12,038 nt of DNA. Origin: Hormoscilla sp. (lineage in GTDB: Bacteria; Cyanobacteriota; Cyanobacteriia; Cyanobacteriales; Desertifilaceae). The position numbers and the translations under genes are program-made. Below the pieces are notes generated by a model. The model did not search any database. It was not told where the DNA came from and worked only from the letters and a program-made list of their open reading frames with translations. The stretch lies in the NCBI GenBank assembly GCA_051439505.1, contig JBFRWI010000171.1, forward strand, positions 1-12,038, written 5' to 3'. Of this stretch, positions 3,022 through 12,038 are shown piece after piece (position 1 is the first letter of the stretch; each line of letters opens with the position of its first letter).

Positions 3022-4656
3022 TTACACATCTATACGCGATAGAAGAGCCACGCGAGTTTGCCACCCGGATGGACACCCATCTAAACGATATAAAAGGGGG
3101 AGAGATCCGGCGGGGGCGGCGAGGTTGAAGGTTAGGTTCCGGTAAATCTGCCATTTTTCTTTTACACGCCATCCAACCCGATCAGCTAGACGGCATTCTG
3201 TTTCCCCATCCACTTTTCCTCCCTCTTCTAGCCATATGCGCTTCTGCACCGAAAAGCCGAAGCGCCCATTGCTACATTTTACCCATAAACCATCGATTGT
3301 GCGCAAGTCTTCATAGGGAAAATTTTCTATATCTTCAACTCTAAACCAACCTTCTTTTTCGCGTCCGGCCACTTGCAGCATGACTTGGGACGTTTCCCGA
3401 TCTGCCTCTTTCCACTGTCCTGCCTTCAGCAAATCACGTAATTTATGGTATTTGGCTGCAACTTTATACTGTTGTCTATCTGCAGCATTATTTCTGCTAA
3501 TAACATCAATAAATGACCTAAAAATAAAATAGGACACAACCAAAATGAAAGAAACGAACAACATAGCTACAAAAGCAAACAATACACTACCAATGAACCC
3601 AATCAAGATCGCGAAAAAATAATTTTTTCTAGGAGTCTTGCTAGCTGATTTAGCCAAATCTATAGATTCTTTCCTTAACTGAGCCGCCCTCCGCTTTTGC
3701 TCTTCGGTTAATGGCTTTTTAGAGGGAGCTTGGGGAGTAGTTGCTGTCTCGCTTGACTCCGTTAATGGCTTTTCAGAAGGAACTTCGGGAGTAGTTGCTG
3801 TCTCACTTGAGGCTGTCTCACTTGAGGAAGCTGGTAATGCAGTAGAATTAGGTGGAGGCGTTGGAGTTACTGCTTCCGCCTGCTCCACCCGTTCCGGGGA
3901 TGAAGTTGAAGTCGGTAATTGGGGTGATGTAGAATTAGGTGATGGCGTTGGAGTTACTGCTTCCGTCTCATCAGGCCGATCGGGCGATAAAATTGAGGTC
4001 GATAATTCGGATTTTAAAAAACTCTCGATTGGGATAGCCAAGTTTAATCCTGTCTTACTTCCATCTTGATGGTCACCTTGTCCGTGAATGCCAATCACGC
4101 GCCCCTCTTCATCTAACACCGGACCACCACTCATTCCCCGACGGGTCGGGTTAGTATAAATCAAAGCATAGCCCTTTTGATTTGGCTTTTGCCGACCAAC
4201 AATATCCCCTGGAGTCACCAGTACCGTGCGTGAAGGCAAAGCCTCGCTGGGTTCCGGTGCGCCCGCGACATAAACTCGTTTGCTAATAGTCGCTGACTCA
4301 GAATTCCCCAACTTCCCCACGCTATAGCTATTCTCGCTGGTGAACTGCACCACGGCCAAATCTACACCCTCTATCCGTTTAATATTAGCAGGATAGACCC
4401 GGTGTCGCCTTCCATCTGGAGCGATCGCCAGATAAGTTACCTCAGCATTGACAACATGTGCGGCTGTCAGCACATAGTAAGTATCGCCCTTGCGATCGAC
4501 AATCACCCCCGAACCAGACTGGTAACCATCAATTAAAACTGTAATCGACTGGGCGATCTGACTCACCTGTTCGGAAGAGAGGGCAAATGCGACCTGGGGC
4601 TGCACTAGGACGATCGCAGCACCAACCATAATTGTAGATAATCTCGACATCATCAT
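3022..4656 (-). CDS. trypsin-like serine protease with signal peptide, Pro/Ser/Thr linker, hydrophobic membrane segment and C-terminal GUN4 domain
   Basis: Triad motifs LTAAHVV, DLAVV, GMSGGPVL; signal-like N-terminus ending AFA; GUN4 motifs LRDLLKAGQWKEADRET, DLRTIDGLWVKCSNGRFGFSVQKRIW, RVGWR, APAGSLP. Confidence 0.92.
   Translation of the reverse strand: MMMSRLSTIMVGAAIVLVQPQVAFALSSEQVSQIAQSITVLIDGYQSGSGVIVDRKGDTYYVLTAAHVVNAEVTYLAIAPDGRRHRVYPANIKRIEGVDLAVVQFTSENSYSVGKLGNSESATISKRVYVAGAPEPSEALPSRTVLVTPGDIVGRQKPNQKGYALIYTNPTRRGMSGGPVLDEEGRVIGIHGQGDHQDGSKTGLNLAIPIESFLKSELSTSILSPDRPDETEAVTPTPSPNSTSPQLPTSTSSPERVEQAEAVTPTPPPNSTALPASSSETASSETATTPEVPSEKPLTESSETATTPQAPSKKPLTEEQKRRAAQLRKESIDLAKSASKTPRKNYFFAILIGFIGSVLFAFVAMLFVSFILVVSYFIFRSFIDVISRNNAADRQQYKVAAKYHKLRDLLKAGQWKEADRETSQVMLQVAGREKEGWFRVEDIENFPYEDLRTIDGLWVKCSNGRFGFSVQKRIWLEEGGKVDGETECRLADRVGWRVKEKWQIYRNLTFNLAAPAGSLPLLYRLDGCPSGWQTRVALLSRIDV
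3707..3965 (-). repeat. intragenic duplications in the protease linker (54-nt and 87-nt periods)
   Basis: SETATTPxxPSxKPLTE x2 (3707-3810) and EAVTPTPxPNST x2 (3843-3878 and 3930-3965), near-identical at DNA level. Confidence 0.85.
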
Positions 4657-4690
4657 TAACCGCCAATTTTAGCTAACTTTATTTTATTCT

Positions 4691-4795
4691 CTCGCTCCCA
4701 GGCTCTGCCTGGGAGGAGGTGTCTCCAGTGGCCGGAATGGAGGCTCTGCCTCCCAACTTCGTTCCCAGCGAGACACGCGAGACACTGGGAACGAG
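4691..4795. repeat. REP-like multi-hairpin element (CTCGYTCCCAGGCTCTGCCTGGGA type)
   Basis: Hairpins ctcccaggc-tct-gcctgggag, ggaggc-tct-gcctcc and tcgttcccag...ctgggaacga. Confidence 0.75.
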
Positions 4796-4816
4796 GGGGA
4801 TCGGGAAACATACCAG

Positions 4817-5395
4817 TTACCAACCGCTATCCTGTGGCAAAATGCGATCGACCAAAGTTTCCAAAGAAATGAACAGAGCAATGCCACCATTTTCATCTAT
4901 TGTGCTATCAGAGGCTCGACCCTGCCGAAAATTAGTCAACCTTGCCAGTACCTGACTGGGGTTGCTGGCATTCTGCTTATTCAGGGTGAACAGAAGATTG
5001 CTATTGTCACAGGTTGATGTTGATGAATTTTGGGTAACAAAGCAAACCACTGGATAATCATTCAGGGTGCCGGTAGTCAGATCCAAGTTGCTCAACATGC
5101 CTCCATTATTGGCCACGGCCTTCGTCAAGCGTTCTGAAACAATGCGGCAACGGTTCTCCGGTGTATAATCAGAACCAAATTCTGTGGTATTCCAGCGGAT
5201 CATCGGGACTGTGGAAACTGCATTACCTCTTTGAGCAAAAGTTGCCCAGCCCTCCCCTTGCCGGACGCATTTGAATACTGTAGGATCCAGTTCAGGATTG
5301 GCCGCTGCTGGCTGAGTCGAATACAGTACAGCACCAGATAGCATCATAGCGGTAGCTAGCGCTTTAGCAGTAAAACCTCCTGGTTTAGCAATCAT
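4817..5395 (-). CDS. COP23 domain-containing secreted protein
   Basis: Signal peptide ending PAAA; FKC...PMIRW...FGSDYTPENRCRIVSERL...GTLNDYPVVC...LLFTL matches the COP23 pattern; sits upstream of a trypsin-like protease gene, a familiar cyanobacterial arrangement. Confidence 0.85.
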   Translation of the reverse strand: MIAKPGGFTAKALATAMMLSGAVLYSTQPAAANPELDPTVFKCVRQGEGWATFAQRGNAVSTVPMIRWNTTEFGSDYTPENRCRIVSERLTKAVANNGGMLSNLDLTTGTLNDYPVVCFVTQNSSTSTCDNSNLLFTLNKQNASNPSQVLARLTNFRQGRASDSTIDENGGIALFISLETLVDRILPQDSGW

Positions 5396-7728: not shown

Positions 7729-7785
7729 CGCCGCCCGAACCCTAAAGGGCCCGGCTACACGAACAAAGCCCGCCTGCGCGGGCTA
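7729..7785 (+). repeat. dispersed repeat family D, copy 1 (AGCCCGCCTGCGCGGGCT hairpin)
   Basis: cgccgcccgaaccctaaagggcccggctac..gaac.aagcccgcctgcgcgggcta; near-identical to 10340-10397. Confidence 0.9.
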
Positions 7786-7827
7786 AATTACTTGCATTAT
7801 CGTTGCACCCCATAACCCTCAACCAAA

Positions 7828-10651: not shown

Positions 10652-10700
10652 TTTCCTGGTGGAGTTTTTACCTTCTTAAAACTGCGATCGCGCCCGACCC

Positions 10701-10764
10701 AGAAACCGGGTTTCTTTGAGAATTTTGGCATCTCCACCAAGATGTTACTAGAAACCCGGTTTCT
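10701..10764. repeat. repeat family C doublet
   Basis: agaaaccgggtttct 10701-10715, 34-nt spacer, agaaacccggtttct 10750-10764. Confidence 0.85.
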
Positions 10765-10778
10765 CGCCCCCACGAGAC

Positions 10779-10940
10779 GGGTGTGGTCAAAACCCGTTGA
10801 TCGTTCGGGCGGCCCTCCCAGTCGCCGGATCCCCCCAAACCCCCCCTTTTGGAAGGGGGGGTTTGGGGGGGATCCTCTACAACTACTTTTGACCACACCC
10901 GTTTGGGGGGGATCCCTTACAACTACTTTTGACCACACCC
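10779..10940. mobile_element. MITE with 14-bp terminal inverted repeats, 9-bp TSD and duplicated right end
   Basis: TIR GGGTGTGGTCAAAA (10779-10792) / TTTTGACCACACCC (10887-10900 and 10927-10940); TSD CCACGAGAC at 10770-10778 and 10941-10949; internal GGATCCCCCCAAACCCCCCC...GGGGGGGTTTGGGGGGGATCC palindrome. Confidence 0.88.
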
Positions 10941-11061
10941 CCACGAGACAGCCCCCCGATCGCGTCCAACCAATAACCCAGGTTTCTTTGATAATTTTCG
11001 TATCGACGATGTTATACCATTTTGGAAAACCCATGCTACAATCACTTTAAATGATATTTTA

Positions 11062-11130
11062 TTAGTCGGTTTCAACCGACTTTAGCTATTAGCCGGGGGT
11101 TTGAACCCCCGGCGGGCTAACAGCGAAGTG
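11062..11130 (-). repeat. repeat family B, copy 3
   Basis: ttagtcggtttcaaccgactttagctattagccgggggtttgaacccccggcgggctaacagcgaagtg. Confidence 0.9.
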
Positions 11131-11158
11131 AGAGAACTTTCTCGATCGCGACCTAACA

Positions 11159-11222
11159 AGAAACCGGGTTTTTTTGATAACCTTCCCATCAATAGAGATA
11201 TGTTATTAGAAACCCGGTTTCT
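11159..11222. repeat. repeat family C doublet
   Basis: agaaaccgggttttt 11159-11173, 34-nt spacer, agaaacccggtttct 11208-11222. Confidence 0.85.
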
Positions 11223-11243
11223 GGGCCCTCGGGACTTGAGAAA

Positions 11244-11397
11244 CTTCTACATAATACAGCGTAGCGCGAAATAATACTAAACTTTTGTATTATTTGTATA
11301 TATTGTATTACAGGAGGCCCTTTTTCCGGCTTCTACATAATACAGCGTAGCGCACATAATACCCGACTTCTGTATTATTTGTATATATTGTATTACA
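11244..11397. repeat. direct repeat, two ~69-bp AT-rich units (86-bp period) with nested ATAATAC/GTATTA inverted repeats
   Basis: cttctacataatacagcgtagcgc..ataatac...tgtattatttgtatatattgtattaca at 11244-11312 and 11330-11397. Confidence 0.9.
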
Positions 11398-11421
11398 AAT
11401 TCGCATTTATGGCCTCCTTTC

Positions 11422-11496
11422 AAAAAAAATTTTGATCGCCTGCGGCGATGAGGGAAGAGGGCAAGAGGGCAAAAGGGCCAAGGGGCTAGGGAGTCC
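11422..11496 (-). other. putative DGR cis-elements: IMH-like pyrimidine-rich repeat tract, hairpin ATCGCC-GCA-GGCGAT, T-run
   Basis: Minus strand after the stop: ggactccctagccccttggcccttttgccctcttgccctcttccctc-atcgcc-gca-ggcgat-caaaatttttttt. Confidence 0.6.
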
Positions 11497-12038
11497 TCAC
11501 CGGGAAAACAGGCACACTACACGCAAACCGCCGTAGTTGTCCCTGCCGCCCGGCGCGTTGCAGTCGCGGTCGGCGCTGCGACAATTCCTGGGATAGTTGT
11601 ACCAGCTGCCGCCCCGCAGCATCCGGCGTGAATCATCTCCACCCGACTCCCAAACGCTGCCATCACCAGGCGCACCTTCATAATTTTCATGCAAAGGATC
11701 TGCACACCATTCCCAGACATTGCCATGCATGTCGTATAAATTAAAAGCATTAGGCGGAAAACTGCCCACATCGATCGTTTTCTCGCGATAAACTCCTTTG
11801 GAACCAGAACCATAGGTGTAGTTGCCATCGTAGTTCGCCAAGTCGGGAGTGATGGTTTCGCCAAAATGAAAAGGCGTAGTCGTTCCCGCCCGACAGGCAT
11901 ATTCCCACTCCGCTTCGCTGGGTAATCTATAGTGGCGTCCCGTTTCTCGGGAAAGTCGGGCACAAAATTCCACCCCATCGTGCCATGATACCTCCTCTAC
12001 GGGTCGATTCGCTCCCTTAAAATAAGATGGATCTGGAT
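11497..12038 (-). CDS. FGE-sulfatase (SUMF1/CLec-fold) domain protein, 3' part; probable DGR target
   Basis: Frame is open to the window end: [25 protein letters not shown]...[24 protein letters not shown]...[17 protein letters not shown]...LRGGSW...CRSA.R...GLRVVC. Confidence 0.93.

Follow-up and report, generated by a model that had tools for sequence, protein, structure and literature searches.

The 12,038-nt stretch of Hormoscilla DNA analysed here (the window, which is the whole of contig C171 of assembly G000; 6.47 Mb in 232 contigs, 93% complete, with no contig below 2676 nt) raises a simple question: was the 3' end of a CLec gene at its edge written by a DGR and, if so, where is that DGR? 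Judging from its sequence, the variable region (VR) of this gene is a genuine DGR-type VR. It is likely the work of a cyanobacterial DGR, and the reverse transcriptase (RT), Avd and template (TR) of that DGR have probably since been lost from the lineage, leaving an orphaned former remote target that has kept its downstream hairpin.

The target gene and its variable region

The gene is convergent on crtD, and its ORF (11497-12036, minus strand, read 12036 -> 11497) is 5'-open at the contig end. The features of the locus are the following.

11497 to 12038, minus strand: CLec/FGE-sulfatase-fold target gene, C-terminal 179 residues (profile and structure-family matches), cut by the contig end
11515 to 11619, minus strand: DGR-type VR (LRGGSW...GLRVV), collinear with cyanobacterial templates by alignment; its template-adenine columns run from 11601 to 11532
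11585 to 11601, minus strand: polymorphic 5' half of the VR, with six base changes in a second allele (contig from run X1)
11634 to 11718, minus strand: stretch upstream of the VR, and outside it, with a second haplotype (nine differences over 11604-11718)
11450 to 11529, minus strand: constant 3' gene end (putative IMH, by position) and pyrimidine-rich tract of CCCTT(T)-type units
11435 to 11449, minus strand: 6-bp GC-rich hairpin with a GCA triloop, a putative target-recognition hairpin and/or terminator stem
11422 to 11429, minus strand: T8 run 3' of the hairpin, terminator-like by sequence

The FGE-sulfatase/CLec domain named in the preliminary description is borne out by a match of the ORF to PF03781 (FGE-sulfatase, E 1.3e-41), and there is a further match to Treponema TvpA (2y3c, 5.8e-17). 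The VR thus sits at the C-terminus of a CLec-fold protein and is collinear with known templates, a likeness to the CLec/FGE-sulfatase DGRs of cyanobacteria. In G004, the crtD-facing gene consists of a trypsin-like domain and a truncated CLec start, and its G000 ortholog (95% at the amino-acid level over 42 residues, 88% at the nucleotide level over 324) is truncated by the end of contig C125, at 35002. The full gene would probably encode a signal peptide, a trypsin-like peptidase and the CLec domain, its 5' part being the end of C125 (a C125-C171 join that we infer). Multidomain CLec paralogs are scattered in the genome, with a kinase-CLec at C100 and the probable trypsin-CLec at C171. As a side observation, there are two parallel pairs of a COP23 gene and a signal-peptide trypsin-like peptidase gene (window 3022-5395 and G000:C125:33383-35002), the C-terminal domain being GUN4-like in one and probably this CLec domain in the other, which suggests that C-terminal modules are swappable.

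After the TGG at 11604-11602, the codons read as originally described (TAC AAC TAT CCC AGG AAT ... TAC GGC over 11601-11530, minus strand, then GGT at 11529-11527). The accompanying claim that the variable codons are all NNC/NNT was circular as first worded, and it holds under an independent adenine mask. This mask comprises the columns with A in at least half of 11 AAY-rich template-like repeats from loci outside the genus (27 of 105 columns); seven of these repeats adjoin a detected DGR RT (L063, L012, L078-L081 and L086) and four (L083, L084, L085 and L088) were included as template-like repeats without a confirmed adjoining RT. The comparison covered ten collinear VRs of the genus, a second G002 paralog (insertions) and a truncated G003 copy being excluded. 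AAY-type codons end in C/T in 11/11 cases in the window and in 106/110 across the ten VRs, against 80/139 codons (58%) upstream in the same ORF, which puts the chance of 11/11 at about 0.002. Column entropy amounts to 1.34 bits where the mask has A; the value is 0.40 for the remaining columns and 0.51 for third positions outside the mask. Differences between the window and the nine other VRs are enriched at A columns in 8/9 pairs (p 5e-7 to 0.003), the C100 paralog of its own genome giving p=0.057; these p-values are overstated by the kinship of the VRs, and selection adds to the enrichment since the A columns are also the likely binding surface. Variation is thus concentrated at template adenines, in codon positions 1 and 2 of AAY codons, and not at the synonymous third positions that the preliminary description had named as the pattern that would speak against a DGR.

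Could this pattern have arisen with no DGR at all, by diversifying selection of the ordinary kind on the binding loop of a lectin? Binding residues of CLec VRs are expected at the variable columns, so the coincidence of the two is what selection would give, and the C100 comparison is in line with it. Selection of this sort nevertheless strikes us as extremely improbable: it does not account for the C/T third bases, for an A in one of two alleles at every polymorphic site (see below) or for collinearity with real templates, and it is largely refuted by a cassette remnant in G003 (contig C502), where a near-identical VR lies directly before avd.

The template sequence predicted at the outset is mostly right, and the second allele agrees with it in carrying A at 11601 and 11595, but three codons need correction: the predicted AAC at 11562-11560 has G at position 2 in 10/10 genus VRs (AGN-type), codon 11550-11548 is GGC in 9/10 (scaffold), and codon 11556-11554 has A as its first base in none of the genus VRs. 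The nearest template-like repeat (L083/L087) differs from the window VR by 24 non-A mismatches in 123 nt. The two Caldora loci concerned contain a target, a template and a spacer, with no RT-sized ORF listed between, and are possibly RT-less cassettes.

The missing machinery in the genome and the genus

The window holds neither RT nor TR, as first reported, and the gene was put forward there as a candidate remote target, served by a DGR in another part of the genome. This part of the proposal is not supported by the assembly (93% complete), in which no template repeat, DGR-class RT, Avd or post-TR spacer RNA was found, although the assembly breaks inside this very gene and a 2-kb cassette could be missing from it. 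An exhaustive ungapped scan of G000, allowing any number of mismatches at A, returned no template and only the C100 paralog, which was also the only match (21 non-A mismatches) in the short-word blastn comparison proposed earlier; a scan for TGG-(AAY)3 gave five hits, none template-like. G000 encodes three RTs, none of them DGR-like: one group II intron RT over the cut-off, one retron-type RT below it and one unclassified RT, of which only 40 residues can be aligned to a DGR RT. The best G000 match to the intact DGR RT of G015 is 26%, and searches of the assembly for Avd came back empty. The retron-type RT adjoins a conserved gene (G000:C213:893-4693), a pair that is also present in G015.

A conserved and covarying structured RNA of about 135 nt lies directly after cyanobacterial templates (L063:2491-2625, and L012, L078-L083, L085, L086 and L088), with two-sided changes in 11 of 26 predicted pairs and no Rfam match in L063. 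It is probably a DGR spacer RNA and a useful template probe. In G000, nhmmer over the whole genome did not find it (best E 1.6), nor did a covariance model (best E 3.1, 150 of 747 candidates scored) that scores held-out G005 and G007 at E about 1e-24. Rfam has no match for VR or spacer; a lone 24-nt CRISPR-DR28 match falls at 7762-7785, in a repeat-rich intergenic stretch of the window.

At the level of the genus, DGR RTs (E<=1e-40) were found in 0/5 genomes, two of which are in six and seven contigs, and in 5/9 other genomes of the family; in intact relatives the gene order is target-avd-RT-TR. The absence of a TR and DGR RT that had been put forward as refuting a DGR therefore holds for the assembly and at genus level, whereas at family level it does not. 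The five species each have two to four hypermutated sensor tails, and the machinery survives only as wrecks, which are kept in three Hormoscilla-type records: (i) G003:C502, with a frameshifted target, a partial avd duplicate, avd and a 34-residue RT stub fused to a PIN domain tail, (ii) G004:C33, with a 40-residue RT scrap at 83%, and (iii) protein P0125, an Avd fused to an RT stub. Degenerate spacer scraps without TR are present in 4/4 congeners. Matches to R1 in the congeners were considered as stand-alone templates and rejected, there being no AAY repeat upstream. The spacer scrap lies, at one orthologous site (L150-L153, in G001-G004), upstream of a small two-gene toxin-antitoxin-like operon, which we take to be ParD/ParE-like; G000 is without this piece of roughly 170 nt, which a short direct repeat bounds, at C198:54961-54974. 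Within 8 kb of eight congener targets there is no RT or avd. RT matches number 3 in G000 and 8 in G003, against 79 in G001, 93 in G002 and 46 in G004 (mostly group II intron-sized), an excess that may be either a real expansion or an assembly effect.

There are at least two types of VR scaffold in the genus. The window scaffold differs from the G001 paralogs at 6-9 of 72 columns, and that of C100 from G004_C7 and G002_a at 4-5 of 72, and at the locus orthologous to C100 one gene of G001 has the other type. By sequence comparison, this suggests that the genus has been visited by more than one DGR. It also fits repeated arrivals, and with them a DGR that came in on a phage or plasmid and rewrote the VR in trans, a scenario that we consider very unlikely, together with its variant in which a resident non-DGR RT did the work. 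The best viral RT match is 28-38% in 34 loci, viral contigs lack the template pattern in an exact scan, plasmids gave no blastn match, and, with no template RNA found, the genome's own RTs (group II, retron-type and unclassified) would have had nothing to copy. Exact template-pattern scans, which miss easily, gave 0 hits in genome contigs, 0 + 0 in metagenome contigs and 0 in viral contigs; a shorter pattern gave six loci in genome contigs, none with this scaffold, and protein searches yielded no further alleles (best non-self match 72%).

A cassette that once stood directly behind the gene was likewise considered and dropped, no RT or avd scrap being found between the gene and crtD or at the C125 end. 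This stretch contains an AT-rich tandem duplication of about 85 nt with internal inverted repeats (11244-11397), which is also present at an unrelated G003 locus, G003:C276 holding a related multi-copy array. REP/MITE-like palindromic repeat families, with very many copies in the genus, occupy window 10685-11228 and 7740-7790.

Two alleles and the 3' cis elements

Runs covering most of the stretch come from marine sediment metagenomes of a single study (P1), which may have supplied the assembly, so P1 reads are not independent of it, and the allele data are assembled contigs only, in which rare alleles are hidden. In X1, exactly six bases set a single 106-nt contig over 11528-11633 (depth 74.7) apart from the window, and all six changes are nonsynonymous (Y>N, N>L, Y>N and N>F). 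All six sites fall at columns with A in all 11 templates (hypergeometric 4e-4 over the contig), and at each of them one of the two alleles carries A on the coding strand, as expected of two independently mutagenised copies of one template. Together with the A-column enrichment, these 6/6 template-A changes bear out the original proposal that the gene was hypermutated by a DGR. The window allele is assembled contiguously over most or all of the VR in 3/4 P1 runs (X2, X3 and X4), and in neighbouring X1 contigs the flanks (11324-11557 and 11726-12035) are identical to the window. By depth arithmetic with 31-letter words assumed, the X1 allele accounts for about 43-56x of 105-126x. X5, from another study, contains a relative's gene with 17 differences. 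The X1 contig break at 11557 was dropped as a second polymorphic site, because what lies there is a 49-nt tip whose 19-nt loose end is presumably a transposase adapter.

The two alleles have a common mutated 3' half, including its non-A bases, and differ in the 5' half only, next to the upstream stretch with two haplotypes. The haplotype depths (51.9 vs 52.7x in X1; 76.8 vs 127x in X2) add up to single-copy depth, which rules out a second gene copy, and the stretch is a probable recombination tract adjoining the polymorphic half, the phase between haplotype and VR being assumed. In BPP-1, integration takes place at a fixed point on the 3' side and at a variable one on the 5' side (PMC3240598, PMC5758913). 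Fresh retrohoming should therefore reset the 3' half of a VR, and the 3' half common to both alleles thus favours recombination: with the same phase assumed, a tract of about 135 bp most likely explains the allele pattern, more simply than fresh retrohoming. Both alleles have the window's own scaffold, therefore the last DGR activity was probably recent, not ancient.

The same polymorphism is the best argument for an intact DGR that persists in the organism, or in part of the population, on unassembled DNA, with this gene as its live remote target. The assembly is fragmented and incomplete, the polymorphism is purely nonsynonymous and at template-A sites, the kind of signal that Roux et al. 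take as a marker of recent activity (PMC8144416), the hairpin is intact, and apparently broken loci of pink-berry bacteria have intact structural variants in long reads (PMC10907252). We nonetheless regard such a hidden DGR as unlikely. No template-like contig aligned to the VR from X1-X5 at 80% likeness, where the read filter drops records and gaps are no proof of absence; a template would be about 88% alike, and much more diverged pieces (7 differences in 37 nt) did align from the runs. In addition, 4/4 congeners have no intact RT, and the mutated 3' half is common to both alleles. Loss of the machinery after it had written the VR is the reading that we prefer.

What remains of a DGR at the locus may include the elements behind the VR. 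A pyrimidine tract of CCCTT(T) type is present after cyanobacterial DGR targets, but not after templates. The 6-bp GCA hairpin is intact in the window and in 4/4 G001 paralogs, not in the other five genus targets tested, and there are 18 hairpins of its kind in the whole of G000 (6.47 Mb). Hairpins of at least 5 bp with a GNA or TGC loop follow 5/10 genus targets and 8/18 target rows of other genera, and behind 11 templates the two top-ranking hairpins are never of this type. The likeness is to the BPP-1 target site, consisting of IMH and hairpin (Guo et al., 2011; PMC3240598), where a GC-rich hairpin is likewise found 3' of the VR and is absent after templates. The hairpin here, however, has a 3-nt GNA-type loop and a 6-bp stem instead of the 4-nt GRNA loop and 7-10-bp stem given there for BPP-1, and unlike the latter it lies about 50 nt past the stop, behind the pyrimidine tract. 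Its role may be to help targeting, if the analogy with BPP-1 holds, and it may equally be no more than a terminator.

Proposed history, precedents and meaning

The history of the locus can be pictured in four steps. (i) Variation falls at the template-adenine positions of AAY codons, with third bases kept. (ii) Going by known DGR biology, RT and Avd would have made cDNA from a template RNA, with misincorporation at A, and this cDNA would have taken the place of the region, the hairpin and the constant gene end on the 3' side probably serving as guides; the DGR probably acted in trans because there is no cassette remnant on either side of the gene. (iii) The machinery is gone from the assembly and presumably from the organism, as in all five genomes of the genus. 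(iv) The two population alleles would be old DGR products, most likely joined by the recombination tract, being the same in the 3' half and different in the 5' half beside the diverged upstream patch. The protein is a putative sensor, to which a trypsin-like peptidase is probably fused, and the variable residues would make up its surface for ligand binding. A more speculative extension, which is possible but rather doubtful, is that a DGR-less population keeps a stock of DGR-written half-VRs that are recombined across the unvarying scaffold in the middle of the VR, the hairpin-bearing targets serving as genus-wide landing pads for transient, re-acquired DGRs with different templates, which then decay.

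Orphaned DGR targets have already been described, and the core finding is in this respect ordinary. Remote CLec targets and remnant paralogs are described in cyanobacteria by Vallota-Eastman et al. (2020; PMC7517822), related groupings being lineage 4 of Wu et al. (PMC5758913) and clade 5E of Dore et al. (2024; PMC10907252), and Nostoc all3226 has reportedly kept remnant TR-VR homology with no nearby RT. The genomes with such remote targets hold a DGR, whereas none was found in this genome and none that is intact in the genus; an A-biased VR, no RT or TR in the genome and DGRs in relatives together make an orphaned target, a statement that applies at the level of the assembly. Closest are isolates of Treponema denticola that lack core DGRs and have 'leftover' target genes (Nimkulrat et al., 2016; PMC4891356), which share with our case adenine differences from related templates, no RT or TR, several template types and multiple gains and losses. 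There, loss occurred among strains of one species and exact templates exist in sister strains, whereas here the loss extends over representatives of five species, the searches gave no matching template, and the two alleles in the population are unlike in one half only. Variation that predates disruption, or that comes from subpopulations with intact loci, is described as well in PMC10907252. One full-text search, which returned one review, gave no account of DGRs in Hormoscilla; 'retroelement' and 'reverse transcriptase' are both absent from PMC6520454, and the genus is not mentioned in the supplements of PMC7517822 and PMC10907252.

The value added by this locus is modest, that is, a genus-wide picture and two alleles that differ in one half of the VR. 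It has implications for surveys in which nonsynonymous VR variants are scored as DGR activity, which could misread such standing variation, and it offers a testable case of a diversified binding site after the loss of its generator.
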